A model generated the notes under the pieces. That model ran no database searches. It was given only the letters and a program-made list of their open reading frames with translations, and was not told where the DNA came from. Below are positions 4,448-53,710 of a stretch of 64,000 bases of DNA, piece after piece; the stretch's first letter is position 1; every line of letters begins with the position of its first letter. A program made the translations under genes and the position numbers. The stretch comes from a virus, in IMG/VR virus record IMGVR_UViG_3300018036_000004, positions 1-64,000 of that record; one strand, written 5' to 3'.

Positions 4448-4981
4448 ATGTCTAAGTATCAAATTATATATACAGACCCACCTTGGGACTACAAAGGTCA
4501 AACACAACACAATGGTAAAGGTGGTGTTAAAACAGGTGGTGCTATCACACACTATCCTACAATGACTCTAAAACAGTTAAAAGAGTTAAAGCCAATGATA
4601 GAAGACTTAGCGGACGCAGATAACTGTTTAATGTTTATGTGGACTAGTTCACCACACTTAGACCAAGCCATAGATTTATTAAAAGCGTGGGGCTTTGAGT
4701 GGGCTACTATCGCTTTTGTATGGGACAAAGTAAAAGTTAATCCAGGTTTCTATACTATGTCACAATGTGAGATAGTACTTTTAGGTAAGATGGGTAAGAT
4801 ACCAAAGCCTAGAGGGGCTAGAAACATTAGGCAGTTTTTATCCCAAGAAAGAACAAGACATAGTGCTAAACCACATGAGATTCGTAAGCGTATAGAACAG
4901 ATGTTTCCTACACAAAAGAAGATAGAAATGTTTGCACGAGAAAAGTGTGAAGGTTGGGACTGTTGGGGCAACGAAGTTTAA
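4448..4981 (+). CDS. MT-A70 family N6-adenine methyltransferase
   Basis: IYTDPPW, FMWT, WGF, HSAKP, IEMFAR, GWDCWGNE. Confidence 0.9.
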   Translation: MSKYQIIYTDPPWDYKGQTQHNGKGGVKTGGAITHYPTMTLKQLKELKPMIEDLADADNCLMFMWTSSPHLDQAIDLLKAWGFEWATIAFVWDKVKVNPGFYTMSQCEIVLLGKMGKIPKPRGARNIRQFLSQERTRHSAKPHEIRKRIEQMFPTQKKIEMFAREKCEGWDCWGNEV

Positions 4982-5069
4982 AATTAACATTAAACATATA
5001 AAATTAACCTTTAAGTAAGTATATGTAAGTGTTCGTTAGAACATAACTCTAATCCTTAAAGGAGAATAT

Positions 5070-5264
5070 ATGCGTAAAGTTTTAAGTTTGGTGGCTCTGG
5101 CTACTTTCCTTGTACTAGCCTTTGGTAGTAAAGGTAACCCTGAGTATCGTGCTTGTTACGATCGTTGTGTAGATCGTAAAAATAAAAAGTATGAAGGTAT
5201 GGGGGGTGCTAATAAGATAGACCTGCAAGTATGTGCCGAAAACTGTGACGCTCGTCACAAGTAA
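5070..5264 (+). CDS. small secreted/membrane-anchored Cys-rich protein
   Basis: AAGGAG RBS; N-terminal hydrophobic helix; CxxxC...CxxxC. Confidence 0.6.
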   Translation: MRKVLSLVALATFLVLAFGSKGNPEYRACYDRCVDRKNKKYEGMGGANKIDLQVCAENCDARHK

Positions 5265-5327
5265 GGTAGTCTTTCTATTGTAATAAGGAGATAGTTCACT
5301 ATCTCCTTTTAACTTTAAGGGTTTGTT

Positions 5328-5762
5328 ATGAAATTGTTTTATACGAGTTTAAATGTGTTTATACCATTACTACTTGGTGGTATTGTATATCTTACATACA
5401 GATCGTCTTGTTTGTTAATGTTTGAGTGGGTAGACTACTTACATCTTACAACATATATAGAGTGGTTAAGGGCTTATGGGTCTGGTCTTAACTACACACC
5501 TTCTAGATTTACCTTGTACTCTTTACCTGATGGTGTGTGGGTACATAGTATGACGGCTACTTATCTTAGTATATGGAAAGAGGACTATAAGAAAGGTTTG
5601 GTTTGGATACTACTGGGCTTACTATTAGGTGTTGGTAGTGAGTTAGGTCAACTGTTTGGGCTAGTAAGTGGTGTGTTCGACTTACAAGATGTGTTTGCTT
5701 ATGTACTATTCTTTATAATAGGTGGTGTAATACAAGTAACAATCAACAACAATAGGAGTTAA
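5328..5762 (+). CDS. integral membrane protein
   Basis: Several hydrophobic helices; YSLPDG..W and E..Q.....G.FD..D pattern. Confidence 0.6.
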   Translation: MKLFYTSLNVFIPLLLGGIVYLTYRSSCLLMFEWVDYLHLTTYIEWLRAYGSGLNYTPSRFTLYSLPDGVWVHSMTATYLSIWKEDYKKGLVWILLGLLLGVGSELGQLFGLVSGVFDLQDVFAYVLFFIIGGVIQVTINNNRS

Positions 5763-5764
5763 CA

Positions 5765-6322
5765 ATGGGTGGAAAAGGATACTCAAGTGATGACAATCGC
5801 TCTATGCAATTAAACGATAACAATGACAGATACTACTCATCAAGGGGGATAGATCGGGATGAAGATTATGACGATTACGAACATGGTGGTAGTTCTAATG
5901 TACAACACAAACCAGTATTCCAAGACTATGTACCTTTTGTAGACTGGTTCCCATATTTTAAGACTTGGATACAGAACATTAAGATTAATATAGGCGAGTC
6001 TTACGAGATTGAAGGTAAGTTGAATGGTCTTACTACGATTCAATATGTAGAACATTTTAAAGGTTTCAATCTTTGGAACAGTGAACATAAGAAGACATGG
6101 GACTACTACAAAACCAGAGCCTTGGTGGACTATTGTGTGGATAAAGGTTTAACTTATACTGTACAATATGGTAGTGTTGTGGAATACAAGGTACAGAACT
6201 GGTCTAACTTTGGATTTGAAGCACAAAACATTATGTATGTGAACCATGTTATCTACGAAAACAATAACCTACTGTTTCCTAACAACGCAGAGGATCTATT
6301 CTTAACTACAAGGGATTTATAA
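5765..6322 (+). CDS. hypothetical protein
   Basis: AGGAG RBS; N-terminal DNRSMQLN.NND.YYSSRG motif. Confidence 0.6.
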   Translation: MGGKGYSSDDNRSMQLNDNNDRYYSSRGIDRDEDYDDYEHGGSSNVQHKPVFQDYVPFVDWFPYFKTWIQNIKINIGESYEIEGKLNGLTTIQYVEHFKGFNLWNSEHKKTWDYYKTRALVDYCVDKGLTYTVQYGSVVEYKVQNWSNFGFEAQNIMYVNHVIYENNNLLFPNNAEDLFLTTRDL

Positions 6323-6373
6323 GTTAAGTGGTAGGTTTTGTGTAGTACTATATACAAAACCTAGGAGTGAAGA

Positions 6374-7126
6374 GTGGAATACAAGTTATGGAATGGTAAC
6401 TGTTTAGAACTTATGTCCGATATAGAGGATAAGTCTGTCGATATGATTCTGTGCGACTTACCTTATGGAACAACAAACTGTAAGTGGGATAACATCTTAC
6501 CTTTTGAGGAAATGTGGCTTCAATATAACAGAGTTATCAAAGATAAAGGTGCTATTGTATTGTTCGCCACACAACCTTTTACAAGTGCTCTGATAATGAG
6601 TAATGTAGATATGTTCAAGTATTGTTGGACATGGGATAAGTGTATTGGTAGAGGTCACTTAGTAGCTAAAATCAGACCTTTACAGCGTACAGAAGATATA
6701 TGTGTGTTTGGTAAAGGCCTTATTAACTACTTTCCTATAATGGAAGAGAGAGATAAGCCTGTAAAAGGTAAAGAGGGTAAAAGAACAGACATTATGGGTG
6801 GAGAGAGTACGGGTTATGAACAAGTTTATACACATAAGTATCCACAGACACTTTTAAGTTATCCTATCCGTATTAAAAAAGAAGACAGAGTACATCCCAC
6901 ACAAAAACCTGTGTCTTTATTAGAGTATCTCATTAAAACATACACACAAGAGAACGAGTGGGTATTAGATAATACTATGGGTAGTGGTTCCACCGGATTA
7001 GCCTGCCAAGATACTAATCGTAACTTCATAGGTATAGAACAAAACGAAGAGTATTACAACATCGCTCAAAGAAGAATGGGTACTAATACTTACAGTACAA
7101 CAAACTTATTTAGGGCTGTACAATGA
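6374..7126 (+). CDS. DNA N4-cytosine/N6-adenine methyltransferase (beta class)
   Basis: CDLPYG (motif IV) precedes HPTQKP and LDNTMGSGSTG (motif I). Confidence 0.93.
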   Translation: MEYKLWNGNCLELMSDIEDKSVDMILCDLPYGTTNCKWDNILPFEEMWLQYNRVIKDKGAIVLFATQPFTSALIMSNVDMFKYCWTWDKCIGRGHLVAKIRPLQRTEDICVFGKGLINYFPIMEERDKPVKGKEGKRTDIMGGESTGYEQVYTHKYPQTLLSYPIRIKKEDRVHPTQKPVSLLEYLIKTYTQENEWVLDNTMGSGSTGLACQDTNRNFIGIEQNEEYYNIAQRRMGTNTYSTTNLFRAVQ

Positions 7127-7929
7127 GTAAATTAACATTATGGAATGGTAACTGTTTAGAGTTAATGTCTAATATAGAGGACAATAGTGTAGATTTAATC
7201 TTATGTGATTTACCCTATGGTACTACGGCTTGTAAGTGGGATACTGTTATACCTTTTGACTTATTGTGGGAGCAGTACAATAGAATAACAAAAGAGGATA
7301 GTGCTATTGTATTGTTTGGTCAAGAACCTTTCAGTTCTCACTTAAGAATGAGTAACTTAAAGATGTGGAAGTACGACTGGATCTGGTACAAAAATAGACC
7401 AAGTGGTGTAGCAACAGCTAAGTACAAGCCCATGGTGAACCATGAAATCATTTCTGTGTTTTGTAAAACCAAGACTCGATACTATCCTATAAAAGAAGAA
7501 AGGGATTTAAAACCAGAAAACGCACACTTGAAAGAGAAAGAGTTTACTAGGGCTTTCTACGGGTCTAGTACACAAGGAATGAAAACAGACAAACCAAACA
7601 AGTCTACTTTTACACCTTTAAGGTATCCTACAACAGTAAAGAGATACGATGCTGTCTCCAACCATAAAGGTAATAGACTACATCCAACACAAAAGCCTAT
7701 AGATCTATTAGAGTATTTAGTAAATACTTATACTCTAGAAGGGGACATTGTACTAGACAATACAATGGGTAGTGGTAGTACAGGTGTGGCTTGTCAAAAT
7801 ACTAATAGAAGGTTTATCGGTATTGAACAGAATGAAGAGTATTACAACATTGCTTGTAAACGAATGGAAGAGAACTTACATTCTACATTACATTTATTTA
7901 AAGTAGAAAAGGACAACAACAATGAGTAA
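7123..7929 (+). CDS. DNA N4/N6 methyltransferase (beta class), tandem paralogue
   Basis: CDLPYG, HPTQKP, LDNTMGSGSTG; ATGA overlap with the previous gene. Confidence 0.93.
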   Translation: MSKLTLWNGNCLELMSNIEDNSVDLILCDLPYGTTACKWDTVIPFDLLWEQYNRITKEDSAIVLFGQEPFSSHLRMSNLKMWKYDWIWYKNRPSGVATAKYKPMVNHEIISVFCKTKTRYYPIKEERDLKPENAHLKEKEFTRAFYGSSTQGMKTDKPNKSTFTPLRYPTTVKRYDAVSNHKGNRLHPTQKPIDLLEYLVNTYTLEGDIVLDNTMGSGSTGVACQNTNRRFIGIEQNEEYYNIACKRMEENLHSTLHLFKVEKDNNNE

Positions 7930-10133: not shown

Positions 10134-10189
10134 ACACAATAATCTTTTAATAGATTGTTGTTTATTAAATTCTAGAGGAAACCTTAATC

Positions 10190-10969
10190 ATGAGTACATA
10201 CAAAACTTTACTTACAGAAGTAAGAACCCTTAAAAAAGTAGCTAATGATGACTTTAAAGAAAACCTTTTAGAGTTACTTAACAGTGAGGATCTAAGTCAG
10301 GTTAACCAAGCCTTATCTTTGAACGACGCGTTAAACATACTTAGCGACCAAGAAGTAGCAGACATCTTAATTCCAAAAACACATGATAATGGTTTTTACC
10401 GACTCGTCTACTGGGAAAATATGGATAGTTTTGGTTGGGAACTTTTGAAAAAGTATCCTAATCACCCAGAGTGGAAACAGTTGGATACACTAGTAAGTAT
10501 TGGGGAAGGAACTGGCAGTGTTCCTAAGGAAATAGAGAACTTAACTAACTTGACAGAGTTGTCTTTACGTAAGGCCAACGTACCTAAAGAGATAGGAAAC
10601 TTAACTAACTTGAAAGATCTAACTCTTTCAAGTTGTAACCTTACTAGCCTACCTAGTTGGATAGGAAACTTAAAGAACTTGACATACTTGGGTTTATATA
10701 GTAACAACCTATCTACTCTACCCAAAGAGATTGGCAACCTTACTAACTTGGACGCTTTAGGGTTAGACTTTAATAAACTAACAAGTCTACCTAAGGAAAT
10801 AGGAAACCTAACTAACTTGGAAAAGTTGTGGTTAAACGGAAACAAACTAACAAGTTTACCGGAAGAATTAGGGAAATTGCGTCGTAGTTTAAAAGTAGTA
10901 GAACTATATAACAATTATATTAAGAAAGACGAACTTCCAAATTGGCTTAAGCGAATTGTAAGTATGTAA
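10190..10969 (+). CDS. leucine-rich repeat protein 1
   Basis: 23-aa LRRs ([22 protein letters not shown]) after a shared leader and tag. Confidence 0.93.
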   Translation: MSTYKTLLTEVRTLKKVANDDFKENLLELLNSEDLSQVNQALSLNDALNILSDQEVADILIPKTHDNGFYRLVYWENMDSFGWELLKKYPNHPEWKQLDTLVSIGEGTGSVPKEIENLTNLTELSLRKANVPKEIGNLTNLKDLTLSSCNLTSLPSWIGNLKNLTYLGLYSNNLSTLPKEIGNLTNLDALGLDFNKLTSLPKEIGNLTNLEKLWLNGNKLTSLPEELGKLRRSLKVVELYNNYIKKDELPNWLKRIVSM

Positions 10970-11009
10970 TACTTACACCACATACTATAAAACACTTAAG
11001 GAGTTAAAA

Positions 11010-11726
11010 ATGAGAAGAAAACAAGCAAGTGATCCATTAAACCAAACTTATGTAAGCTTGGTAGAATTCGATCTACTTACAGGGGCTGAAGGTGCAAGGA
11101 TACATCGCAGGGAACAGGACGGATCTCCTTATGTTAGTGAAAAGGACTTGAACTTTTACGCTAAACAAGATTTAGAATTCTGGGAAGAGTACATTATGTA
11201 CACACCGGAGTGGGAAAAGGCTATGGAAGCTTTAGAGGAACTCTACGATACTTCTGACGTAGAGATTTATCCTAAGGCTGAGACTAGATCGATTGTTGTG
11301 TACTCAATAGAAAATGAAGAATACGATATGCGTGTTAGTGACTCCAAGGCTTGGGGTTATATGGAAAAACAAAAGAACAACATGAAAAGTATATATAACT
11401 CTGTTAAGGGTTCACAAGTCCTTAGACAGTTACAAGATACCCACAACAAGGCAAGTAAGGCACAAGTAGATAAAGTAAGACAGTCGTTGTTTACCTTTGA
11501 CTTAAGAAATATCAATCAGATGATAGACATTGCGTATGCGTTGGAAGACAAAAAGATTAACGATGTTATTAGGGAGTTTCTGGACTTCACACCATTAGAT
11601 ATAAATAGCGGTACTGTTTGGATGACTGTACAAATATTTACAAGGTGGAAAATTGCTACTCGTGGGGGTCTATCTTCTTGGGAAGACTCCGAGGAAGAAT
11701 CCTTTGACGATTCTGACTGGTATTAA
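11010..11726 (+). CDS. hypothetical protein with KQAS leader and internal tag-like helix
   Basis: AAGGAG RBS; MRRKQAS; LFTFDLRNINQMIDIAYAL. Confidence 0.65.
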   Translation: MRRKQASDPLNQTYVSLVEFDLLTGAEGARIHRREQDGSPYVSEKDLNFYAKQDLEFWEEYIMYTPEWEKAMEALEELYDTSDVEIYPKAETRSIVVYSIENEEYDMRVSDSKAWGYMEKQKNNMKSIYNSVKGSQVLRQLQDTHNKASKAQVDKVRQSLFTFDLRNINQMIDIAYALEDKKINDVIREFLDFTPLDINSGTVWMTVQIFTRWKIATRGGLSSWEDSEEESFDDSDWY

Positions 11727-11784
11727 TCTAATACTTACTCTATAAAGAACCCCTTACTGTTAAACACAGTCAAGGGGTTTTCTT

Positions 11785-12393
11785 ATGTTAACTGCAATGG
11801 GCGATGTAATGCGTGAAGCATACAAACGAGGATGGATTACTACTAGAGATGGAAACATATCGTTGGTACAATCTAACAGAGAAACATTCTACATCACACC
11901 TAGTGGTTGGCGTAAAACTATCTTACATCCTGAACATATCTTACGCATACCTATTGTGGATAACGAGTTAGAACTTAAAGAAGGTATGAACCCTAGTGGT
12001 GAACTAGAAATGCATTGGAACTTACAACAACCCAATAAGTTTCGAACAAGAGCCGTGGTACATCTACATCCTACTTATACTATAAGTGCTATGTTAAAAG
12101 GTTTCGATTTACAGTCAATGTCTAAACACTTTCCAGAGTTGTCTAGATATACAAGAGTAGGACCTACTGTACCAGTATTGCCTGTAATCTCTACAGAGTT
12201 AGCATGGGCAACTGCAGGGAACTTTTATATAGACAGTGATGGTAAAGTTAAGTATGACATTGTAGGGCAAGCAGGACATGGTGTTTGTGCTATTGGAGGG
12301 AACCCTTGGGATGCTTTTGAGCATATAGAGCGCTTAGAACATATCTGTCAGATAGTATTGGCTAGTGGTGTTGATCCAAAAGACTTACAATAA
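11785..12393 (+). CDS. class II aldolase/adducin family protein
   Basis: GNISL, YITPSG, PSGELEMH, VVHLHP, GHGV metal-binding motifs. Confidence 0.88.
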   Translation: MLTAMGDVMREAYKRGWITTRDGNISLVQSNRETFYITPSGWRKTILHPEHILRIPIVDNELELKEGMNPSGELEMHWNLQQPNKFRTRAVVHLHPTYTISAMLKGFDLQSMSKHFPELSRYTRVGPTVPVLPVISTELAWATAGNFYIDSDGKVKYDIVGQAGHGVCAIGGNPWDAFEHIERLEHICQIVLASGVDPKDLQ

Positions 12394-12453
12394 AGGTTTA
12401 ATCTTGTGTAGTACAATATAAACCTTAATAACATAATCTAAGGAAACCTAATT

Positions 12454-13101
12454 ATGACTACTTATAAAACATTATTACAAGAAGTAAGAACCCTTAAAAA
12501 AGTAGCAAGCGGTGACTTTAAAAAGAAACTTTTAAGTTTACTTAATAGTGATGATCCTAGTCAGGTTAACCAAGCCCTATCTTTAAATGATACCCTAGGT
12601 ATTCTTAGTGACCAAGAAATAGGTGACTGGTCTATACCTACAGTTATTAATAGAAACCGAAACGTGGAAGAACATTGGAAAACCTTAGACAGTTTAGGTT
12701 GGGTACTTTTAAAAGCCATACCTAATCATCCTATGTGGAGTAGCCTTACAGCTTTAGGGTGCTACGGTGGCAACATTACAAGTTTACCTAGTGAAATAGG
12801 AAACCTAACAAACTTAAAAACCTTGTTCTTAAATAATAACAATCTAACAAGTCTACCTAAAGAAATAGGAAACTTAAAGAACTTGGAAACGTTGTACGTA
12901 GAAGAAAACAATCTAACAAGTATCCCTAGTTCTATTGGTAACCTAAATAAGTTAAAGTTCTTTCGGTTAAGTGATAACAATCTAACAAGTCTACCCAGTT
13001 CTAGTGGTAACCTAACTAAGTTGAGAGCGTTAACCTTAGACAATAACAAACTAACAATTGATGATGTACCAGAAAACCTTAGAAAGGTTACAAAAATCTA
13101 A
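12454..13101 (+). CDS. leucine-rich repeat protein 2
   Basis: Same N-terminus and LRR consensus as 10190. Confidence 0.93.
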
Positions 13102-13159
13102 AGTTTAACCCTACTAAACCAATAAAAGTTATCTTGTACATAAATAAAGGAAACTATTC

Positions 13160-13879
13160 ATGACTACTTATAAATCCTTACTTACAGAAGTTCGTACTCT
13201 TAAAAAGTTAGCCAGTGAAGATTTTAAAGAAAGTCTTTTAGAGTTAATTAACAGTGGAGATATACAAGACATTAACCATGCTTTATTTTTAAACGAGGAC
13301 TTAGAAATCCTTACAGATCAAGAAATTGGTGATTTACTCTTTCCACAAGTTATTAATAGTAAAAGCGGGAAGACTGTATTTGGGGCATGGCTCCAAGACG
13401 GATTAGGTTGGATGCTTTTAGAAACTTTACCTAATCACCCTATGTGGAAAAACTTAACTAAATTGAGTCTACTTGGTAGAGGACTAACAAGTTTACCAAG
13501 TTCAATAGAAAACTTAAAGAACTTGAAAAGTTTGTTCTTATATGATAACGAATTAACAAGTTTACCTAAAGAACTTGAAAACCTAAAGAACTTGTTATAC
13601 TTGAACTTAATGAATAACGACCTAAAAAGTTTACCTAGTGCAATAGGAAACTTAACTAACTTGAAAGAGTTGAACTTAAGGAATAACAAACTATCCAATT
13701 TACCAAGTTGGATAGGTAATTTAAAGAACTTGGAATACTTGAGCTTAGAGAATAACAACCTAACAAGTTTACCTAAAGAAATAGGAAACTTAACTAACTT
13801 GAAAGTCTTGAACTTAAACAATAACAGCCTAACAATAGAGGATGTTCCGGAGAACATTAGATCTATCCTTTTTGATTAG
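13160..13879 (+). CDS. leucine-rich repeat protein 3
   Basis: Same N-terminus and LRR consensus as 10190. Confidence 0.93.
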   Translation: MTTYKSLLTEVRTLKKLASEDFKESLLELINSGDIQDINHALFLNEDLEILTDQEIGDLLFPQVINSKSGKTVFGAWLQDGLGWMLLETLPNHPMWKNLTKLSLLGRGLTSLPSSIENLKNLKSLFLYDNELTSLPKELENLKNLLYLNLMNNDLKSLPSAIGNLTNLKELNLRNNKLSNLPSWIGNLKNLEYLSLENNNLTSLPKEIGNLTNLKVLNLNNNSLTIEDVPENIRSILFD

Positions 13880-13889: not shown

Positions 13890-14117
13890 TCACTTAATAT
13901 GATTAACAGACTGGGACATTTCAACATTCCAGTCTGTTCTTAATTCTATTAGTGGATTAAACGTGGCACTACTACGCTCGGCTATAAGGGAACCTTGTGG
14001 CTTTACCATCTCTCCTACAATGTCTATAGCATCAAAGTTTATCTCGGTTTCCCTTTGATACTTTACTTTAATGTTTTCCTGTCCTAAGGCTAACCCAATC
14101 AATACATACAACAACAT
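13890..14117 (-). CDS. GltF/CglF-like adventurous gliding motility protein homologue
   Basis: Signal peptide then T.I.F...I.G...KP.G.....R....F..LI..R......M.QSV..l, the pattern of the small myxobacterial CglF/GltF proteins. Confidence 0.72.
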   Translation of the reverse strand: MLLYVLIGLALGQENIKVKYQRETEINFDAIDIVGEMVKPQGSLIAERSSATFNPLIELRTDWNVEMSQSVNHIK

Positions 14118-14270
14118 AACATACTCACTATCTGTTAAGTGGGACTAAGTACAAGGATTGTGTTTACATATATACTTATTGGATTGTATCAATAGATTAT
14201 TGTATACAATCAATAGTTGCCTTATAACAACAGTATGTGTAAGAACATACCCTATAACAGTGGAGAAATT

Positions 14271-14840
14271 ATGTTGAAACATTTACAAAGAATGGCTATC
14301 CAAAAAGTAATGAAAACAGCCTCTTTTAATTTTGACCAGGACTTTTGGGGTGACCTGATTGTACAAGGTTGTGTTAAAGTTAAAACTAACTTTAAAGTTA
14401 GTAAGACAGAAGAATTTAGTATTTACACAACAGTTCGTAGTAGAGATTACTACACACCAGATGATTGGGACGAACATACTTTTAAAGCACCTTCCACCTA
14501 CGAAATTAATCTTAGTGGGGCTATGGACTTGGATTGTGTAGAAAAAGAACTCGGAGAACTAGTAACGGGTGACGAAGTATGGGAAGCCTTTGTAGAGTCT
14601 TTAGAGGACAATGGTAGTTATGGTGGAGGCATGTTTTACGAGGCCTTAGAAGATCTAACTATAGAACTAGAAGACGATTGGAGAGGTGAAGCCTCAGATT
14701 ACACTTTCGAAGACTGGAATGTGAGTTCTTGGAATGTTAAAAATCCTAAGTACAAAGTAGTAGGAGACCATGTAACTTTTAGTTTAACACTTCAAGTAAA
14801 CATTGAAGTAGAAGGTTTACAGTTTGACAGTGAATACTAA
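14271..14840 (+). CDS. hypothetical protein with KTAS leader
   Basis: GGAG RBS before ATG 14271; MLKHLQRMAIQKVMKTAS. Confidence 0.65.
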   Translation: MLKHLQRMAIQKVMKTASFNFDQDFWGDLIVQGCVKVKTNFKVSKTEEFSIYTTVRSRDYYTPDDWDEHTFKAPSTYEINLSGAMDLDCVEKELGELVTGDEVWEAFVESLEDNGSYGGGMFYEALEDLTIELEDDWRGEASDYTFEDWNVSSWNVKNPKYKVVGDHVTFSLTLQVNIEVEGLQFDSEY

Positions 14841-15213: not shown

Positions 15214-15286
15214 GGGGCATTAACTCAGTTGGGAGAGTGTCACCCTTGCAAGGTGAAAGTCATCAGTTCGAATCTGATATGCTCCA
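15214..15286 (+). tRNA. tRNA-Ala(TGC)
   Basis: Cloverleaf: acceptor GGGGCAT/ATGCTCC with G3:U70; anticodon loop CTTGCAA; T-loop TTCGAAT; discriminator A; CCA not encoded. Confidence 0.95.
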
Positions 15287-15312
15287 CTTTCTTTTAAAAC
15301 ATAGGAAGACTT

Positions 15313-16214: not shown

Positions 16215-16799
16215 GTGGTGAAAACTATGTCGTATGAAGAAGCCTCTAAACTTTGGGAACTGATATTTACTAAAGACTTAGATAACATTAACCAAGCCGT
16301 TATGTTAAATGAAGTACTAAACATTATACCTTTACAAGATATACAAGACGCTCTATATCCACAATTTCTTTATTCTCAAACTCAACAACAGTTTATTAAC
16401 TTTGAAGACCTAGAAGACTTACTACTTAAAGTCTTTGACTATGTAGAACTAGACCCAGAAGACTATGACAGTATCTCTACTTTGTACAAAGACAAGTCCT
16501 TTCCTCTTACTTTGATTACAAACCCACCCTCTTTGTTAACACCTGAACCCGAACATATACCTCATCCAGATACTGTATCTGGACAAAGAGAATGGAAACA
16601 CTTAAAAGATAAGGCTTATAAATACACAGACAAACTAAATACTAACATACCACAGTTAAAAGGTATGACAGCAGAAGACTTTGTTACGGAAACACATAAA
16701 CAATATGTAAAACTAAATACTAAACTAGAAGCCTTACTGAATAAACTGGCTGAAGATCCTAACCTGTGGCAAACTACTACGGGTATCGTTTATAGATAG
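16215..16799 (+). CDS. hypothetical protein with N-terminal tag helix
   Basis: LWELIFTKDLDNINQAVMLNEVLNII. Confidence 0.65.
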   Translation: MVKTMSYEEASKLWELIFTKDLDNINQAVMLNEVLNIIPLQDIQDALYPQFLYSQTQQQFINFEDLEDLLLKVFDYVELDPEDYDSISTLYKDKSFPLTLITNPPSLLTPEPEHIPHPDTVSGQREWKHLKDKAYKYTDKLNTNIPQLKGMTAEDFVTETHKQYVKLNTKLEALLNKLAEDPNLWQTTTGIVYR

Positions 16800-44360: not shown

Positions 44361-47300
44361 TTACAAACTAGAACGAACATTGAAAGTAATTACAATGTAG
44401 ATCAATGGGAACACTGGTTGGTAGTAGGCTTCCACTTCGATAGCCGTTGCATCCGTTTCAGATACTTTAGCACTAGCAGGAATAAAGGTAGCAATAATTT
44501 GGTTACCCACAAGTCCTTTAAGAGTAGCGTTTAACTGACCCTCGATTTGACTTGTAATCCCTGGTAAGAACTTAATACCAATGAAACGATCCAAAGTAGC
44601 ACGGGCTTGTCTTTGAACTTCATCTGCAATAGTAATAACAGAAGGAGTTCTAGACAAAGTGTTAGTCATGTCTGTTGTAAGACCGTGACGAACAGAAATA
44701 ACCTGTCTGTCTTGTCCAATAACAGTCACACCTCTAACGGCCACTTGGTTTTGTGCTACAGCATCTAACTTACGAGCAACTTCATCAAATCCAACAATAC
44801 GACCACGAGTCCAAGGAGTCGCAACATCAATTGTAGGACTTGCTCTGTTACCAGCCCAAGCGGCTGCTACATAAGTACCATCCACCAAGTAAGACTTAAC
44901 AGAACCATCCGCTGCAGTTAAAGACAATGTAACAATGTCCGGATACATAATTCTCAAACGAGAACGTTTAACGGCTTCTGCTATATTACCGACCTGTCTA
45001 GGTTGTGTTCCAGCACTAACACCAACAATCGCAGTTCTTTCCGCACGATAACGAATAGAACTTTGAATGTCACAATGTCTAGCCAAGTATTGGAACATTG
45101 GTAAACTATCACCCCGCATAGGAACAATGTAGTTAGGATAAATACCACCAGGTAAAGACCCTTCTACTTCATCGATAGCCTTAATGTAAGCGTCAATAGA
45201 AGCAGAGTCCGGAGTACCATCGTTGTTAATGTCTTCATCCTTTTCTACTTGTTTAATAGCAATGATTACGGCACCATTCAAGAACGCTAAGTAAGCACCT
45301 AAGGAAACAGGATTAGAAGGAGTCTTTTCACCAAACGCTTGTTCTACAGTCGCTTGTTTAGTGTAAATCTGACTACTAAAATCTTGTTTACGATAGTTGT
45401 ACGACACATAGTAGATGTCTCCTACACTAGGTTCATTTCCACCACTTGCATAAGTAGTAACAACAGCCGAGTCTCCAACATTAACACCTAAAGTATTAGA
45501 AACAATTGTTTCTACTCCCGGTAAAGTATTAATAGGAAGATTGGAGTCTGTTGTAACAACCTTACGAAGTTTGAAAGTGAAACTTTCACCTGTAGGATAA
45601 CTAGCGCCACCAGGTCTTGGTAAAACAGTAAAAGTCAAACCAGTAACTAAGTCACGATAGGTTTGTCCAACATTACCATCTTGTCCATTACCACTATTAA
45701 GTACAGAAGTATTAGCTGAACCCGAACCGTCAATAGGATCAGAAGATGTAACATAGAAACCATCTATGGATGGTTCACCAACATTACCTTCTCCACCAGT
45801 AACACCTAATCCAGTACCAGGTCTTGTTACAGAGTCTACAGCGGCTTCTACAATAGCAATAGAACTAGAAGTTCCAACACCAGAAGTACCTAAACTTTGT
45901 AAGTACAAGAACTCTCCACCAACACTATCACGAATAGTTTTAGCAATACCCACTTTAGTAAAGTAAGCAGACGCACCACCATCTGCCCAGTCGATTAAGT
46001 GCAATGCTATAGACGCTTGGTCGTGTGCCAAAAGAGCACTAACCAATGTTTCCACTTCTACAACAGTTCTAAATACTTGTTCACCGGTATTGAATCCAAG
46101 TGTGTCGTTAGCAGAACCATTACCAATAGTAATAGAAGCATCTGAACTAGAACTAGCACCACGGAAACGGATACCCACACCTTCTTGCATTACCAATCCA
46201 CTAGCCAAACCTTGAGCAACCATGGCCGCTTGGATTTGGTTTAAGACTGTATTCGCTGTACCAATAGGACCTAAAGGAACATCTGCAGATGTTGTAATAG
46301 CACCGCCAGTACCGTCTGTAAACTCAATAGTTACAGGTACACCTTCGAAAGTAAACTTAAAGATGTTACTTTGTGGGTTAGTTGAACTTGGACCATAGAA
46401 AGTTACTAAAGGTTGTCCACTACCGTCTTGTCCACCTTCAAGTCCAATGTGTGAACTAATAGTAGGTTCCATAACTGTACCACGAATACCACTAACACCA
46501 ATTTCGTTAGAAGTAAGACCACAGTTATTGTTTCCACTACCACCTAAGACTTGAATAAAGGCTTGGTCTTGAACATATTGTCCATCCATAGAACCAGATT
46601 TTCCAGGTACAAGGCGGTTACGAAGAATAAGTCTATCATAACGCTTTTGTCCTGAGGCACCTGTAAGTGAGAACACACGAGCAATTTTACCATTAACAAG
46701 TTTGGCTTGTCCACCTTGTGCACTGTCAGTATCGAAACCTGCTAACACAGCAAAGTCACGAGCAGGAGTTCCATTAGTTACAAACTCCAAGAAACCACCG
46801 TCAGTATCTGTATGATCTGGAATCAAACTAAATACTAATCTTCCACTAGTATCGGCTTCTACTGTAATAATACAGGAAAGACCCGCTACACCAACTGCTG
46901 TGTTTACTGCAGTTTGAATAGCAGATACTAAGTCACTTACAGAACCATAAGTACTTGCGGGAATTGTGACAGAGATTGGAACAGAACCTTTAACGGAACC
47001 AGTGTAGTTAAGTTCAATTTGATCAAACTCACTCGCACTGATAACAGTAGGAGCCAAGAACTGTGTTACTCCAGTAATACTAGGAGCAGCATCTGGATTG
47101 TACAAGTGGAATACAGAAGTAGCATCGAAAGTACCACCATCAAGTGTTAACACACCATTAACAGAGGCTGTAACAGTTCTAACTGTAGTACTTACACCAG
47201 TACCTCCTGTACACACAAGTTGCCAGCCTGCATACAGATTATCTGTATCACAAGGCATTTCCGAAGCGGGAATTGTAAGTGTGTTAAGACCACCCGCACT

Positions 47301-49511
47301 CGCTAATGCAAAGATACCTAAGGTGGCTTGGTTAATAGCTAAAGCATAGTAACCAACATCTACAGTACCTGTAGCGATACAAGCCATAATAAGTTTACCA
47401 TCAACAATAAACTCTAAGTTCTTATTAGTTTCGTCTACTACATAAGTAGTGTATCCACTAGAGGCTGTATACACAATCTCATTACTCACAAGTTGTGCGT
47501 GTATACCGCAACCTGCACCTGTTGGATCACTTAAGTCCACAAAGCCACCAGTAACAGTAGACCCTTCAAACTCTACATCAAAATGGTCAGAACCATTAGA
47601 GATAAGATAGTAAGGACCTGTACCTGGTACAGTGTATTTAGCCAATGTTGCATCTTGACTGTCGAATGTAACAGTTACATCTTCTTCTACTGAACCTTGA
47701 TAGAAGTTAGTATTAAAAGGTGTTTCTACACGACAATCAGGAAGTCTTTCTGTACCACTTGGAAACTGTAATTCGATAGTAGCCAACCCACTGGACTTAG
47801 ATCCAAATTGTGGTGTTACTAAGGCATTACTGTTTTCGTCTGTGATAGTATAAGTACCAACACCACTTGCTCCAGCCGTATTACTAACAATAGAGTACTC
47901 TAGGTCTACTAATGTGTTGTAATAGAATGTAGCGTATACTGTGGCCCCTACAGGTACTGCTTGTGCTAAAGTGATAGTATTGGTTTCACTATCAACCTTA
48001 GTTACTTGTACACGACCACGATTAACAGCGTCTTCTACAGAGAATCCCCAATAAGCCCAAACCAGGTCTGGTCTATTGGTTGGAAGATCGTAACGACCAT
48101 TAGATACTTTGTTGTATGTATCAGAAGACAGAGGAGTATTTCTACCATTACCCGTTGTGGCTTGTAAAGGTAAAGTGAACTCTTTACGACCTTCTACTGC
48201 AGGAGAAGTTGCTGTATTTACAACGGCTGTACATTCTGCTAAGTATTGTCTAACATCTACCAAAGAAGAGGTAACTTGTGTTCCATCGAAGAAGTTGTAA
48301 CCCAAAGTGTGAACACCAGACTCAACAGTACTAGCAGTACCCCAAAGGATTAAGTCGTCCTTTAGAATAAAGTCCGCACCGGCTGTGTAATCCTGACGAT
48401 CTGGTGTAATACCACATTGTGTGATTTGAGTAACACCACGATGTGCCAGATAATCAAAAGTGTCCTGCCAAGAGTTAAAGTAATACTGACAAGATACAGT
48501 ATCTCCAACCTTTGGAGCGAAAGGTAAAGTAATAGCACCAGATTGTCCATCTACTGAAGTAGGGATTACTTGGATACCGTTTACTTTAACTGTTACATCC
48601 GCGGGATCTGTTGAGGTAATACCACCATTAGAACCATCTACGATAGGTCTTTGGAATGTGTAGAACACATTATTTCTTGGAGTAGTTTGTCCTAGAGTAA
48701 GTCCTAATGTAGTATTAGCAGACCCGTTAAGGATTTCAATACTATTATCAGCACTTAATACTACAACAGTGTCTCCAAAGTTATTAACTGTAGTAGAACC
48801 ACTTAAAGAAGTACTACCACTACCACCATTAATAAAAGCAGCGATTTGAGCGGCTGTCCAAGGAGCGCCCGCGGCACTTGGAAGAATTGTAATGTCCAAA
48901 GTAGTTTGGTTATCTACCAAGATTTTAAGAGTGTCGTTTACACCTTGTGTGATTACAAAAGGTTCACCTTTTGCTCCGTAAATAATAGGTGCTTGGGATG
49001 TAACTTGTTCAGACAAGTTATCCGTAATCAAAGTGTCTGTTCTATTAAAGAAGTAAGTAACTCTTACTTCGTCACCTAAACTAGGAGAAGTAGAAAGTTT
49101 TAAAATACCTTTAGAACCGTCAATAGCCAGAACTACTACGGGTTCATTATTAATAGTTACAGAAACACTACCGGTATCTTTTGCAGTAGTTCCTGAACCG
49201 TCTCCTGTTACAATAGGAAAATGTTTAACTTGAATACGATCCAAGTTACCATCAAAAGCACCTAAAGTTACATTACCAGTTTGGGAAATACTAACAACAG
49301 CACGACCTGTTTCATCTTCTTGAACAATGCGTTGGTCTACTGAAGAAGAAGAACCACGAACAAGTTCAAGTTGATTTTGTGTTAAGATTTCAGAGCCCGT
49401 TCCTACCAATAAAGGAATACGGACATTAGAGGCCACACCTTGTAAAGGGTCCTCAAAGTTTGTTTGGGTATACACACCGGGAGGGGCGTATATAGAACCT
49501 GGGAAAGTCAT
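44361..49511 (-). CDS. contractile tail sheath protein (very large)
   Basis: N-terminal APPGVY; C-terminal sheath domain (VRHGLTT, LDRFIG, V...YQPVFPLIYI.ITF). Confidence 0.88.
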   Translation of the reverse strand: MTFPGSIYAPPGVYTQTNFEDPLQGVASNVRIPLLVGTGSEILTQNQLELVRGSSSSVDQRIVQEDETGRAVVSISQTGNVTLGAFDGNLDRIQVKHFPIVTGDGSGTTAKDTGSVSVTINNEPVVVLAIDGSKGILKLSTSPSLGDEVRVTYFFNRTDTLITDNLSEQVTSQAPIIYGAKGEPFVITQGVNDTLKILVDNQTTLDITILPSAAGAPWTAAQIAAFINGGSGSTSLSGSTTVNNFGDTVVVLSADNSIEILNGSANTTLGLTLGQTTPRNNVFYTFQRPIVDGSNGGITSTDPADVTVKVNGIQVIPTSVDGQSGAITLPFAPKVGDTVSCQYYFNSWQDTFDYLAHRGVTQITQCGITPDRQDYTAGADFILKDDLILWGTASTVESGVHTLGYNFFDGTQVTSSLVDVRQYLAECTAVVNTATSPAVEGRKEFTLPLQATTGNGRNTPLSSDTYNKVSNGRYDLPTNRPDLVWAYWGFSVEDAVNRGRVQVTKVDSETNTITLAQAVPVGATVYATFYYNTLVDLEYSIVSNTAGASGVGTYTITDENSNALVTPQFGSKSSGLATIELQFPSGTERLPDCRVETPFNTNFYQGSVEEDVTVTFDSQDATLAKYTVPGTGPYYLISNGSDHFDVEFEGSTVTGGFVDLSDPTGAGCGIHAQLVSNEIVYTASSGYTTYVVDETNKNLEFIVDGKLIMACIATGTVDVGYYALAINQATLGIFALASAGGLNTLTIPASEMPCDTDNLYAGWQLVCTGGTGVSTTVRTVTASVNGVLTLDGGTFDATSVFHLYNPDAAPSITGVTQFLAPTVISASEFDQIELNYTGSVKGSVPISVTIPASTYGSVSDLVSAIQTAVNTAVGVAGLSCIITVEADTSGRLVFSLIPDHTDTDGGFLEFVTNGTPARDFAVLAGFDTDSAQGGQAKLVNGKIARVFSLTGASGQKRYDRLILRNRLVPGKSGSMDGQYVQDQAFIQVLGGSGNNNCGLTSNEIGVSGIRGTVMEPTISSHIGLEGGQDGSGQPLVTFYGPSSTNPQSNIFKFTFEGVPVTIEFTDGTGGAITTSADVPLGPIGTANTVLNQIQAAMVAQGLASGLVMQEGVGIRFRGASSSSDASITIGNGSANDTLGFNTGEQVFRTVVEVETLVSALLAHDQASIALHLIDWADGGASAYFTKVGIAKTIRDSVGGEFLYLQSLGTSGVGTSSSIAIVEAAVDSVTRPGTGLGVTGGEGNVGEPSIDGFYVTSSDPIDGSGSANTSVLNSGNGQDGNVGQTYRDLVTGLTFTVLPRPGGASYPTGESFTFKLRKVVTTDSNLPINTLPGVETIVSNTLGVNVGDSAVVTTYASGGNEPSVGDIYYVSYNYRKQDFSSQIYTKQATVEQAFGEKTPSNPVSLGAYLAFLNGAVIIAIKQVEKDEDINNDGTPDSASIDAYIKAIDEVEGSLPGGIYPNYIVPMRGDSLPMFQYLARHCDIQSSIRYRAERTAIVGVSAGTQPRQVGNIAEAVKRSRLRIMYPDIVTLSLTAADGSVKSYLVDGTYVAAAWAGNRASPTIDVATPWTRGRIVGFDEVARKLDAVAQNQVAVRGVTVIGQDRQVISVRHGLTTDMTNTLSRTPSVITIADEVQRQARATLDRFIGIKFLPGITSQIEGQLNATLKGLVGNQIIATFIPASAKVSETDATAIEVEAYYQPVFPLIYIVITFNVRSSL

Positions 49512-52419: not shown

Positions 52420-52992
52420 TTACAGTCGATAGTTTGTTGGAACTTTTACCTTTAGGATTCCTTTGGTTTCATTATCTATATCCCAACCAAGACCTCCCCT
52501 TCGTTCAACATCAAATGCTCTCGACCAGTCTTCCATATCCTCTAGAAAAGTATTATAAAAGTTATCACGGTCACGACCAAGATTGTACAATGTCCCAGAA
52601 GATGTAGTGATAGTGTATTCGAACTGCACATAAGGCATTCTATTCATTTCTATAATTTCGAAATCACTTACAACCTGTAATTCACGACGGTTTCGGCCGC
52701 GGCTATAAGACCTAGCTAATGTTGTAACCTTGTCCCGAACCAAGTCTAACCACTGTTGGGGTGTTCCAGCATCACTTAACCTTTCAGTTTCCGCTTGTAA
52801 AAATGTCTTATACCCTTCTAAGTGTCCTAGTAAGTTATCCTTTTCTCTTCCAGTCTGACCACGCATATAGTGCTTCAAAGTTTCTAAGGCTGAAAGTGTT
52901 TCCCTTATATTTATTAATTGTTCCTGTTTAGAAGCCAGTTTCTTTAATTGTTGAACTTCTTTAAGAAGTTGTTTTGCTGTTAATTTTCTCAT
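52420..52992 (-). CDS. hypothetical protein with KKLAS leader
   Basis: MRKLTAKQLLKEVQQLKKLAS. Confidence 0.7.
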   Translation of the reverse strand: MRKLTAKQLLKEVQQLKKLASKQEQLINIRETLSALETLKHYMRGQTGREKDNLLGHLEGYKTFLQAETERLSDAGTPQQWLDLVRDKVTTLARSYSRGRNRRELQVVSDFEIIEMNRMPYVQFEYTITTSSGTLYNLGRDRDNFYNTFLEDMEDWSRAFDVERRGGLGWDIDNETKGILKVKVPTNYRL

Positions 52993-53047: not shown

Positions 53048-53710
53048 CTAATATGCGTCTTTATTGTCTAGGTAATTCATTAGAATTTTTGGTGCTTCTT
53101 TATCAAACACAGATTTAAAATGTGTAAAACACTTATCCATCGACTCATCTATATTTGGAGTAAGAATATTTTTCTCAACATCGTAAGGGTCTTGAAACAA
53201 CCCGTAAAAATCACATTCGCTCTTATTGGTCCCATCTCTTGCGATCACATAATTGAACAAAATGAAATCACGACCCACGACTAACTTCATCTCTACATGT
53301 CCCCAAGCACCTTTACCCCCTATATTAGATTTTATTTTCCAATCTAAACCTGTTTTCTTAGCCCAATTTTCCATATAAGACAGGATTTTACCATAGGTGT
53401 CTTCAATGGCTTGTTTAGCGTCTTGGTCACATTCAGAACCTTGTTTCCACCAATCTATACAAACCTTTTGTTTTTGTACTCGAATAGGCTGTGTTCTTGT
53501 ATAGGTGACATAGGCTATGTCACCTTGAACATTAATGTCTTCGATATAATGTTGTGAGACATGCTGAGCAGCCCAAGACTCTACTTGACCCAACAGGTCT
53601 TCTTCGTCTTCGTAAACGAAAACATAATCTTCTAACCAGTCTTTAGAGGCCAGTTTCTTTAATTGTTGAACTTCAAGAAGAAGTTGTTTTGCTGTCAGTT
53701 TTTTATTCAT
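53048..53710 (-). CDS. hypothetical protein with KKLAS leader
   Basis: MNKKLTAKQLLLEVQQLKKLAS. Confidence 0.7.
   Translation of the reverse strand: MNKKLTAKQLLLEVQQLKKLASKDWLEDYVFVYEDEEDLLGQVESWAAQHVSQHYIEDINVQGDIAYVTYTRTQPIRVQKQKVCIDWWKQGSECDQDAKQAIEDTYGKILSYMENWAKKTGLDWKIKSNIGGKGAWGHVEMKLVVGRDFILFNYVIARDGTNKSECDFYGLFQDPYDVEKNILTPNIDESMDKCFTHFKSVFDKEAPKILMNYLDNKDAY

Follow-up and report, generated by a model that had tools for sequence, protein, structure and literature searches.

Excerpts of one article (PMC3012670) describe the internal proteins of T-even phages as injected and anti-defence, a diverse set of defence proteins in which the targeting sequence is the only common feature. According to parts of another article (PMC9026906), the T4 capsid-targeting sequence (CTS) has its targeting function at residues 4 and 7 and its processing function at residues 8 and 10, with cleavage after a glutamate. 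In T4, the internal proteins IPI, IPII and IPIII are otherwise unrelated small proteins with one common short N-terminal peptide, and their genes adjoin tRNA genes and the lysozyme gene. For the chimallivirus Goslar, sections of a third article (PMC13742148) report several DUF7941 paralogues per phage, in which one common N-terminal module is followed by variable binding domains (carbohydrate-binding, glycoside hydrolase or leucine-rich repeat, LRR); they are assigned to the tail, as fibres, and a host-recognition role has been proposed for them.

Among cellular proteins, LIC12234, LIC11098 and LIC10831 of Leptospira interrogans and SHOC2/Rsu1 have the same 23-residue unit, consensus and fold as the proteins described here, but they have N-termini of their own, and none carries the phage leader or N-domain. 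The type III effectors XopL, XopAC, YopM and SlrP/SspH2 are likewise LRR binders, delivered into target cells, where they act on proteins. The variable lymphocyte receptors of lampreys, a pre-made panel of LRR proteins, may be comparable in logic. Substrates of C39 peptidases carry a leader that ends in a Gly-Gly-type cleavage site.

The window, a stretch of 64,000 nucleotides at the start of a 102-kb record (IMG/VR record IMGVR_UViG_3300018036_000004), contains three genes of a multigene family that is lineage-specific and encodes small soluble LRR proteins; the phage is huge, uncultured and from a salt marsh. What stands out is the front end of these proteins (leader and N-domain) and the family as such, not the variable face. 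The common short address peptide suggests loading of the LRR family into the virion and delivery to the host, and this is our best reading of the LRR binders, to which we assign a probability of roughly 40%. No comparable leader-tagged LRR family was found in print.

Architecture and fold of the window proteins

The three paralogues recognised in the initial annotation are real: all are plus-strand open reading frames that score above the Pfam LRR_14 cut-off of 40 bits (73.8, 68.9 and 105.1 bits for paralogues 1, 2 and 3). The features of this region are as follows.

10170–10189, 12434–12453 and 13140–13159, + strand: ribosome-binding site and 5' leader, about 20 nucleotides, conserved in an upstream alignment of the three window genes and five related genes
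10190–10969, + strand: LRR paralogue 1, open reading frame of 259 amino acids; LRR_14 E 1.4e-20; seven LRR units and end cap; leader, amino acids 1–20 (nucleotides 10190–10249); N-domain, amino acids 21–100 (nucleotides 10250–10489); LRRs from nucleotide 10490
11010–11726: gene between paralogues 1 and 2, unknown, unrelated to the LRR genes
11785–12393: gene between paralogues 1 and 2, class II aldolase, unrelated to the LRR genes
12454–13101, + strand: LRR paralogue 2, open reading frame of 215 amino acids; LRR_14 E 4.5e-19; five LRR units and end cap; leader, nucleotides 12454–12513; N-domain, nucleotides 12514–12753; then LRRs
13160–13879, + strand: LRR paralogue 3, open reading frame of 239 amino acids; LRR_14 E 4.2e-30; six LRR units and end cap; leader, nucleotides 13160–13219; N-domain, nucleotides 13220–13459; then LRRs

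LRR_4 and LRR_8 likewise exceed their Pfam cut-offs in the window proteins, and besides LRR families the Pfam scan of the three proteins returned two weak unrelated matches and nothing else. The 23-residue repeats, with their 69-bp DNA period, are present in all three genes (Tandem Repeats Finder), and their copy number differs, as first described: seven, five and six units. The near-identical upstream and leader DNA that had also been reported was not borne out; the genes are alike only over the ribosome-binding site with the 5' leader (about 20 nucleotides together) and the first 60–100 or so coding nucleotides, and over nucleotides 1–63 they are 73–81% identical. Between paralogue 2 and a relative (L012:10001), about 50 upstream nucleotides are nearly identical, while the coding sequences are only 73% alike. 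At the protein level, the other two paralogues are 56% and 52% identical to the first overall, with a common N-terminal region of about 100 residues.

Four elements make up each protein. A basic leader, about 20 residues long, is followed by an N-domain that is helical and acidic, by five to eight 23-residue LRRs (the range of unit number across the family copies) and by a conserved carboxy-terminal cap. Within the N-domain, the first hairpin is a portable module and the second half caps the solenoid. The repeats are of the SHOC2/Leptospira LIC subclass, as defined by the unit length and the consensus LxxLxLxxNxLxxLPxxIGxLxxL. The best sequence matches in the PDB are LIC11098, LRRD1, LIC10831 and SHOC2, and phmmer gives E-values of 3.1e-85 to LIC11098 and 9.8e-78 to SHOC2. 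An AlphaFold2 model of paralogue 3, made from a 22-sequence alignment (pLDDT 91.9), is a short LRR solenoid with helices at residues 4–30, 35–48, 53–63, 74–77, 82–89 and 94–98 and six strands between residues 101 and 218. The closest fold is that of LIC12234 (4tzh; Z 21.4, r.m.s.d. 2.6 over 171 residues), followed by 4u08 (Z 19.4), SHOC2 (7sd0; Z 17.5) and YopM (Z 15.6). The fold matches to the Leptospira and SHOC2-type proteins begin at model residue 52–59.

No hydrophobic segment was found in the LRR proteins (maximum KD19 at most 0.78, and KD9 over the first 40 residues at most 0.78, compared with 2.68 for an exported neighbour); as judged from their sequence, they are soluble and have no signal peptide. 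Identity with a type III LRR effector was rejected. The best NCBIfam effector match, XopL, reaches 98.4 bits, far below the cut-off of 500, the LRR part alone aligns (XopL, XopAC, XopAE and SlrP were tested), and neither an effector catalytic domain nor such a secretion signal was found in the window proteins, the LRRs being the sole likeness.

Leader, hairpin module and the putative route into the head

The leader and the hairpin module recur, separately, in proteins that have no LRRs. The relevant genes are listed here, together with a peptidase gene.

16215–16799, + strand: 194-residue protein with an N-terminal hairpin module and a non-LRR body; HMM E 2e-10, tblastn E 1.3e-6
52420–52992, − strand: unrelated 190-residue protein with an LRR-type leader; leader HMM at residues 7–22, E 2.8e-5; no Pfam family
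53048–53710, − strand: unrelated 220-residue protein with an LRR-type leader; leader HMM at residues 8–24, E 3.5e-5; no Pfam family
56592–57239, − strand: weaker hairpin look-alike; HMM E 0.13, residues 4–40; not significant alone
60106–60645, − strand: 179-residue protein with an N-terminal hairpin module; hairpin HMM E 1.5e-4, match at residues 4–40
60675–61271, − strand: weaker hairpin look-alike; HMM E 2.6, residues 4–40; not significant alone
61274–61846, − strand: weaker hairpin look-alike; HMM E 0.011, residues 4–40
G000:93007–93843: C39-like cysteine peptidase; Peptidase_C39_2, 37.3 bits, cut-off 24

Leader residues T3, Y4, K5, L7, L8, E10 and V11 are invariant in all eight aligned N-domains, and an HMM of the leader (LRR protein residues 1–22) matches the N-termini of four unrelated proteins with E-values from 2e-6 to 3.5e-5. 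The hairpin module occupies LRR protein residues 21 to 50, approximately, and was searched for with an HMM of residues 12–62. It heads several small non-LRR proteins near recombination genes; when the product of 16215–16799 is compared with P0018, the N-module alone aligns (E 7e-7).

When the leader is compared with the N-terminus of IPII/IPIII in the T4 record, M1, T3, Y4 and E10 are found to be common and positions 7 and 8 hydrophobic, so that the CTS pattern is present with Y4 and E10 identical to IPII/IPIII and with L7 and L8 as its hydrophobic residues. The motif is short, and in a survey of 431 open reading frames 3 of the 424 outside the LRR family also reach three identities. The terminase best matches those of an uncultured 485-kb phage (54%) and of Tunturiibacter phage Tunturi_5 (29%); T4-type phages are absent from the 15 matches listed and from the organisms named in the tallies for the 201 records that matched. 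By these matches, the terminase is not T4-type and the phage does not belong to the T4 lineage, and the CTS likeness is for this reason to be read as a short-motif analogy. Unlike in the T4 internal proteins, the leader here is conserved over about 20 residues and is followed by a second portable module, and the cargo is an LRR solenoid. Neither a capsid gene nor a T4-type prohead protease (S77, gp21; PF03420) was found in the 102-kb record, which is a fragment, and PF03420 was also not found in the 485-kb nearest relative by a search that detects T4 gp21 at E 4e-113. That these two genes were not found in the record counts against packaging.

The Peptidase_C39_2 gene is flanked by two of the four leader-bearing genes and is located about 5 kb from the terminase gene; in the nearest deposited relative it is conserved, with 48% identity (E 4.8e-50). 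As in C39/double-glycine systems, a papain-like C39-type peptidase gene lies beside genes whose products start with a conserved leader that is amphipathic and has small residues at its end. In contrast to those systems, the phage peptidase is encoded by a stand-alone gene, and neither a Gly-Gly site nor an ABC exporter was noticed. The last residues of the leaders are Ala-Ser, Ala-Gly, Ala-Ala-Gly or Ala-Asn rather than Gly-Gly, which counts against our best reading.

Packaging is favoured because the leader is common to unrelated cargo, with two of its four bearers flanking the peptidase near the terminase, and because its first ten residues fit the T4 capsid-targeting pattern. The leader would act as an address peptide that brings the LRR protein into the assembling head, and would probably be trimmed there, the candidate enzyme being the C39-like peptidase. 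Carried by the virion, the LRR proteins would reach the host cell together with the DNA, and there each LRR face may bind a host protein of its own, such as part of a defence system. Support for injection is indirect. Neutralisation of host sensors, suggested in the initial annotation, would be a possible function; no PADLOC family matched. The most complete version of this scheme is unlikely as a whole: a pre-made panel of LRR binders, addressed to the head by a signal not homologous to that of T4 (the basic leader of about 20 residues plus the hairpin), trimmed by the C39 peptidase and injected, with each copy neutralising a different host sensor and short-tract exchange renewing the specificities.

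Replication and metabolic genes, not head genes, surround the LRR genes, which counts against packaging. Their neighbours in the window encode a HAD phosphatase, an aldolase and DNA methylases, and on a related contig LRR genes sit between GroEL and a DnaB-like helicase. Such non-structural surroundings, the solubility of the proteins, their lack of a signal peptide and the presence of the hairpin module on small non-LRR proteins near recombination genes would suit intracellular binders that are never packaged and serve host takeover or anti-defence, with the leader and hairpin as docking elements for one shared partner (a chaperonin, a protease adaptor or the replication factory, for instance). 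We consider this possible but doubtful: the leader is common to genes that flank the peptidase not far from the terminase gene; an extreme N-terminus that is invariant and has Glu10 is seen more typically in processed signals than in docking helices; and gene position does not discriminate, because in T4, too, the internal proteins are encoded outside the head module.

The proteins might instead be virion-surface adhesins, anchored by their N-modules to the capsid, collar or tail and binding the host surface with their LRR faces, in the manner of the DUF7941 'fibre cloud' of Goslar. The domain order of the Goslar paralogues, the multi-copy nature of the family with its differing faces, and one related LRR gene that immediately follows a 1742-residue open reading frame are consistent with this. 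That giant neighbour has no PHROG match, however, and the LRR genes are outside any recognisable tail module. The N-module differs from that of Goslar, Pfam matching LRR families alone and no DUF7941, and the window proteins are small, predicted to be monomer-like solenoids with no obvious fibre or trimerisation domain. Surface adhesins are, in our view, decidedly unlikely.

If, as in the packaging reading, the leader loads the head, this huge-phage lineage would carry a modular binder repertoire into every infection. The internal-protein idea, which in T4 covers a small number of injected anti-restriction proteins, would be extended to a scalable scaffold with re-settable specificity. Such loading would also represent a second, non-T4 route by which cargo is addressed to a capsid; the leader would be usable as a packaging tag in phage engineering, and the LRR panel would direct attention to defence components or surface structures of salt-marsh bacteria that are not yet known. 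Should the leader have no such role, what remains is a family of phage-specific LRR genes whose N-domain is unusual, a modest gain in annotation.

Family size and mosaic history

The N-domain was found by profile search in 15 of 1.84 billion representative proteins, and its family forms nine clusters among 5.8 billion proteins; in the bacterial and archaeal genomes scanned, none of 30 candidate stretches was confirmed. Five further LRR family genes are located on related metagenome loci, and intact copies number at least eight in this phage or a close relative, their history being mosaic. The same longest contig, of 267,244 bases, is listed for the clusters of LRR3, P0003 and P0008. That LRR proteins are uncommon in tailed phages, as initially supposed, fits loosely: blastn matched one of 50,697 phage records, an LRR gene of a Leptospira phage, but two PHROG families match the LRR part. 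Among the best 50 BFVD fold matches listed, nearly all are from giant viruses of eukaryotes.

Copies of the family share exact runs of 41–65 nucleotides against a background that is 65–75% identical, and a test for short-tract exchange gave p ≤ 0.001 in 5 of 28 gene pairs. In all eight genes, the nearest relative switches between gene segments. Growth of the family by duplication and short-tract exchange between copies is in part demonstrated by these data and belongs to the packaging reading. Both proteins that look recombinant could be chimeras produced by assembly. Repeat-number variants were not seen in any of four runs, and the arrays did not vary between runs, being letter-identical in three non-source metagenome DNA runs. 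The earlier proposal that the genes are diversified by recombination has partial support. RNA-library contigs, which can contain DNA, match all three window genes exactly.

Variability and selection at the concave face

All nine variable strings (xLxLxxN) quoted in the initial annotation occur in the window genes. Over the 11 canonical 23-residue units of these genes, entropy is 1.97–2.91 bits at positions 2, 3, 5, 7 and 8, and 0–0.44 bits at the backbone positions L1, L4, L6, N9, L11, L14, P15, G19, N20 and L21. A constant scaffold with a variable face is therefore a correct description of the window genes, but a generic one, ordinary for this LRR fold. In six-unit subsamples, the entropy at the x positions is 2.08 bits in the window genes versus 1.91 bits (s.d. 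0.21) in 25 ordinary LRR proteins, those of 114 unrelated ones with at least six canonical units; the difference is within one standard deviation, and the excess variability expected at the x positions is not seen.

Targeted hypermutation of x codons by a diversity-generating retroelement or similar was disfavoured as a source of this variability and is extremely improbable. Variable codons are interleaved with constant ones, as it would predict, and nothing else speaks for it. No reverse transcriptase (RVT_1) was found in the fragmentary 102-kb record, with a control search positive in 3 of 14 genomes, the arrays are invariant in the three non-source runs, and closely related units are as different in their concave halves as random pairs are (8–14 versus a mean of 10.4 of 18 nucleotides).

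At the x codons, dN/dS is about 0.9–1.2, at saturation, the pattern of divergence confined to x codons has a joint p of about 0.18 under an empirical null, and codon tests gave no demonstration of positive selection there. The core has a pN of 0.09 versus a pS of 0.54, and the backbone and cap are clearly under purifying selection. The ordinary variability of the face, the identity of the arrays in four runs and the lack of demonstrated selection count against our best explanation, and are what would be expected of ordinary paralogues with no repertoire function, in which the x differences are neutral LRR drift and the copies are redundant or have one housekeeping role. This is improbable, given that at least eight intact copies are kept, with varying unit number and charge, that the backbone and cap are constrained, and that contigs from an RNA library match the three genes.

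Returning to delivered binders, the suggestion of a binder repertoire finds agreement in the solenoid model, in which each concave LRR face differs, whereas a binding function is so far a prediction. Hardly any concave-face residue is the same in the paralogues, and their LRR parts have isoelectric points that span 4.6–9.6. At the concave-face positions, tyrosine is enriched 3.2-fold and glutamate 2.8-fold.

Three LRR genes and the predicted fold of their products

The source record of the window comprises 102,476 bases and has a CheckV completeness of 58%. Three genes of the window encode leucine-rich repeat (LRR) proteins, each made up of a leader of about 20 residues, a helical N-domain, a series of repeat units and an end cap:

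10190–10969, plus strand, LRR1, 259 amino acids, 7 units
12454–13101, plus strand, LRR2, 215 amino acids, 5 units
13160–13879, plus strand, LRR3, 239 amino acids, 6 units

All three proteins exceed the Pfam cut-offs for LRR_14, LRR_4 and LRR_8 and match PHROG 6688, a group of unknown function, with E-values of 1e-30 to 1e-38. The unit is 23 residues long, and Tandem Repeats Finder reports a 69-bp period in each gene, as described in the initial annotation, which had also noted the differing copy number; the nine concave-face strings that it listed are all present in the window genes. The near-identical upstream and leader DNA that it reported does not extend to the upstream DNA as a whole: what is alike is a ribosome-binding site and leader stretch of about 20 nt, together with the first 60–100 nt of coding sequence. 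Upstream motifs of the family genes are loosely similar when judged by eye. About 50 nt upstream of LRR2 (12394–12453) are nearly identical to L012:9949–10000, which precedes the gene at L012:10001 on a related metagenome locus, while identity between the two coding regions is just 73%; conservation is higher in the regulatory region than in the gene itself. A HAD phosphatase-like gene is located directly upstream of the trio, and LRR1 is separated from LRR2 by two unrelated genes, one an ORF of 238 amino acids and the other class II aldolase-like.

The model of LRR3, built from a 22-sequence alignment, has a pLDDT of 91.9 and a pTM of 0.85, residues 1–20 being its least confident part (pLDDT 67–70). 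Helices are formed by residues 4–30, 35–48, 53–63, 74–77, 82–89 and 94–98, followed by six LRR strands and a short carboxy-terminal helix. Among 48,161 chains searched, the top fold match is Leptospira LIC12234 (Z 21.4, r.m.s.d. 2.6, 171 residues), with LRRC8 (Z 20.1), LIC11098 (19.4), designed LRRs, a Roco LRR, Rsu1 and SHOC2 (17.5) next. The matches start at residues 52–59 of the model, so residues from about 52 to 100 are predicted to act as the N-cap, preceded by an added helical hairpin of residues 1–51. For the N-domain, a structure search of the Atlas returned only HEAT/TPR-like neighbours with TM-scores of 0.42–0.58, too weak to name its fold. No hydrophobic segment or signal-peptide-like core was found in the LRR proteins. 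The leader is basic (pI 9.5–10.4), residues 21–100 are acidic in most copies and the pI of the LRR part ranges from 4.6 to 9.6 across the family. Unit positions 2, 3, 5, 7 and 8, the x positions of the concave face, are enriched in tyrosine (3.2-fold) and glutamate (2.8-fold). We regard the LRR genes as a family of soluble protein binders, with a probability of about 0.8.

Variation on the concave face

In the 11 canonical units of the window genes, the entropy is 1.97–2.91 bits at the x positions and 0–0.44 bits at the backbone Leu, Asn, Pro, Gly and Asn positions. The constant scaffold with a variable binding face claimed earlier is therefore real as a pattern, but not as a special trait. 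In subsamples of six units, the window genes have entropies of 2.08 (x), 0.21 (core) and 0.75 (convex), compared with 1.91 (s.d. 0.21), 0.38 and 1.04 for ordinary proteins with this type of LRR, of which 25 out of 114 had at least six canonical units; the contrast between scaffold and face thus belongs to the fold.

Nei-Gojobori counts were made on 31 units from eight genes (465 pairs). The core backbone has a pN of 0.09 and a pS of 0.54, which indicates purifying selection. The x codons, with a pN of 0.61 and a pS of 0.64, are saturated and uninformative. In two unit pairs the convex half is identical in nucleotide sequence, yet every x codon differs. Diversification specific to the x positions, considered for these pairs on a hand estimate of p ~0.06, was dropped when the joint p from an empirical null came to ~0.18: of 168 unrelated pairs matched for backbone residues, 51 are identical at the interleaved backbone codons and 49 differ there once, and the x-codon differences of the two pairs (8–14 of 18 nt) match the null mean of 10.4. 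The apparent divergence at x codons only is accounted for by codon bias. Neither the counts nor the unit-pair null demonstrates positive selection at x codons; that the copies are just ordinary redundant paralogues is judged improbable.

Family, mosaic history and population data

The N-domain is rare. Searched by word index, 5.8 billion proteins yielded nine clusters, all combining the N-domain with LRRs in 214–263 residues. An N-domain profile run against 1.84 billion representatives matched 15 proteins at E <= 0.001. When their sequences were read, most proved to be N-domain plus LRRs; one consists of repeats of the second-half motif only, and two database proteins, P0018 and P0020, have no more than the first ~50 residues of the domain, on a non-LRR body. 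None of 30 candidate stretches in the bacterial and archaeal genomes scanned was confirmed as an N-domain, and related loci were absent from the stretches examined in viral contigs (0/22 with a protein query, 0/119 with an alignment query). With tblastn, LRR3 had no match in the phage collection, probably because of the low-complexity filter; blastn did match a Leptospira phage LRR gene.

A metagenome scan yielded four loci out of 139 pattern matches, two of them differing by 2 of 20,303 bases. They hold five more complete genes (233–277 amino acids, 6–8 units) and the end of a sixth; the other ORFs of these loci have no match in the 102-kb record. Three of the five genes are flanked by those for a DnaB-like helicase and a phage GroEL, and a DNA polymerase gene lies upstream. 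The GroEL-type chaperonin (L012:7920–9521; PHROG 5725, E 1e-164) is separated from the three LRR genes downstream of it by about 500 bases that include a single small ORF. The longest contig listed for the clusters of LRR3 and of the database proteins P0003 and P0008 is 267,244 bases in each case, and the runs in which L012 paralogue sequences were found also contain the window. On the simplest reading, at least eight or nine copies would be carried by a single phage, no smaller than 267 kb, or by phages very closely related to each other. By terminase, the nearest deposited relative is an uncultured 485-kb phage (54% identity), in which neither the N-domain nor LRR_14 or this LRR type was found; the family is therefore a lineage-specific expansion.

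Pairs of family genes are 65–84% identical overall, yet have identical stretches as long as 65 nt in common. The longest are in the leader (LRR1 with L012c, 65 nt), the convex half-units (42–51 nt) and the carboxy-terminal cap (52 nt). A column-shuffling test, which ignores rate differences between sites, gives p <= 0.001 for 5 of 28 gene pairs, and across four gene segments the nearest relative changes at least once in all eight genes. Short-tract exchange between copies explains this mosaic best. The repertoire diversified by recombination that had been proposed gains partial support from the identical stretches, the five pairs and the shifts of relative; no variant in repeat number was seen in the four runs compared. 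Two further database proteins, P0002 and P0009, are exact piecewise copies of known family genes, with joints where the parents share exact runs of 31–41 nt; considered as reciprocal recombinants, they were not counted as evidence, since their contigs are only 1905 and 1070 bases long and they may be assembly chimeras.

The locus recurs in salt-marsh metagenomes, with at least half of the sampled words in 12 DNA runs. Exact pieces from non-source DNA runs cover LRR1 completely and LRR2 and LRR3 in large part. Four runs were compared, all as contigs, which cannot show rare variants or depth; at this level, none of the repeat-number variants that were to be sought in reads was seen in the window genes. 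Listed joints and loose ends were rejected as array variants, being explained by paralogues mapping piecewise. A hypermutation system acting on the arrays is very improbable: no reverse transcriptase was found in the 102-kb record and the arrays are stable across the four runs, as contigs. Contigs of one RNA library exactly match all three LRR genes, a hint, rather than proof, of transcription.

Leader, hairpin module and comparison with T4

Residues T3, Y4, K5, L7, L8, E10 and V11 are invariant in the eight aligned N-domains. A hidden Markov model of residues 1–22 matches the amino-termini of four unrelated proteins of the record (E 2e-6 to 3.5e-5; G000 denotes coordinates on the full record):

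52420–52992, minus strand, leader-bearing protein
53048–53710, minus strand, leader-bearing protein
G000:92280–93002, leader-bearing protein, on one side of a peptidase gene
G000:93833–94573, leader-bearing protein, on the other side of the peptidase gene

The peptidase gene (G000:93007–93843), 29 kb beyond the window end, belongs to a cluster about 5 kb from the large terminase. Its product scores 37.3 bits against Peptidase_C39_2 (cut-off 24) and has a weaker match to the AvrRpt2-like C70 family. A conserved counterpart with 48% identity (E 4.8e-50) is encoded by the 485-kb relative, where leader-like amino-termini beside the peptidase are not significant (E 0.087). The peptidase of the record is a stand-alone papain-like cysteine peptidase of C39 type, shares a 14-residue amino-terminal opening with its upstream neighbour and has a diverged leader copy after the peptidase domain. 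PADLOC assigned no family to the three LRR proteins or the peptidase.

The hairpin module (about residues 21–50 of the LRR proteins) stands at the amino-terminus of three further proteins, besides three weaker cases:

16215–16799, ORF, E 2e-10
G000:90293–91894, 533-amino-acid protein, E 1.8e-7
60106–60645, minus strand, ORF, E 1.5e-4

When the ORF at 16215 is compared with P0018, the hairpin module is the only part that aligns, so the module is portable; P0018 and P0020 were accordingly rejected as members of the window's family of ~190-residue proteins. A basic helical motif with many Arg, Lys, Gln, Ala and Ser residues occurs three or four times in the 533-amino-acid protein.

According to the T4 record, internal proteins IPII and IPIII share M1, T3, Y4 and E10 with the LRR family and IPI has K5 in common with it; hydrophobic residues occupy positions 7 and 8 in both groups. 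According to the part of PMC9026906 consulted, targeting to the head needs no more of IPIII than its first 10 residues, of which 4 and 7 matter for targeting and 8 and 10 for processing by a protease that cuts after Glu. T-even internal proteins are diverse defence proteins with the targeting sequence alone in common, according to an excerpt of PMC3012670. Three identities with T4 at positions 2–10 occur in 10 of 431 ORFs, namely three unrelated ORFs and seven from the family, whose matches are not independent of each other; the match to the targeting sequence is short. By terminase, the phage is not of the T4 lineage. An S77 protease was not found in the 102-kb fragment, in which no capsid gene was found either, or in the 485-kb relative, while the T4 positive control worked. 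T4 is thus an analogy of working, not of family.

By this analogy, the leader would address the LRR protein to the head and the tagged protein would be trimmed, delivered with the DNA and, in the host, bind host proteins. This full chain is tentative, its chances being somewhat short of even. Binders that act inside the cell and are never packaged are a rather doubtful alternative. Adhesins on the virion surface, of the kind of Goslar DUF7941 (described in the consulted part of PMC13742148), are unlikely; the phage LRRs found in the literature, as far as the portions consulted go, are tail-fibre or eukaryote-directed cases (including PMC13742148 and PMC10945359). LRR proteins and leader-tagged internal proteins are each already known, and no paper was found that joins LRR proteins with a capsid targeting sequence or T4-like internal proteins.

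Several other features of the window were recorded. Convergent with LRR3 is a 75-amino-acid ORF (13890–14117, minus strand) with a hydrophobic amino-terminus and a match to CglF (NF033764; E 4e-11, 42.8 bits against a cut-off of 90), a possible clue to a gliding Myxococcota host. A 21-nt direct repeat in two copies (14176–14216) directly precedes the ORF at 14217–14840, and a tRNA-Ala (TGC) gene (15214–15287) lies 1.3 kb downstream of the LRR genes. The stretch 4448–7929 encodes, one after another, two N6/N4 DNA methylases and an MT-A70-like methylase, with a further methyltransferase at G000:76075–77067. The last ~350 residues of a 1716-amino-acid ORF (44361–49511, minus strand) match a tail-sheath PHROG (E 3.8e-27), and there is a weak DUF2460 match too. 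An intergenic element of about 60 bp, probably a regulatory cassette, occurs at no fewer than 12 window sites on both strands (near 19045, 19574, 20339, 21561, 22379, 30160, 31328, 32638, 34740, 36228, 37561, 37724 and 38827) and twice on the related locus L010 (1672–1771 and 2824–2913), with 76–90% identity.
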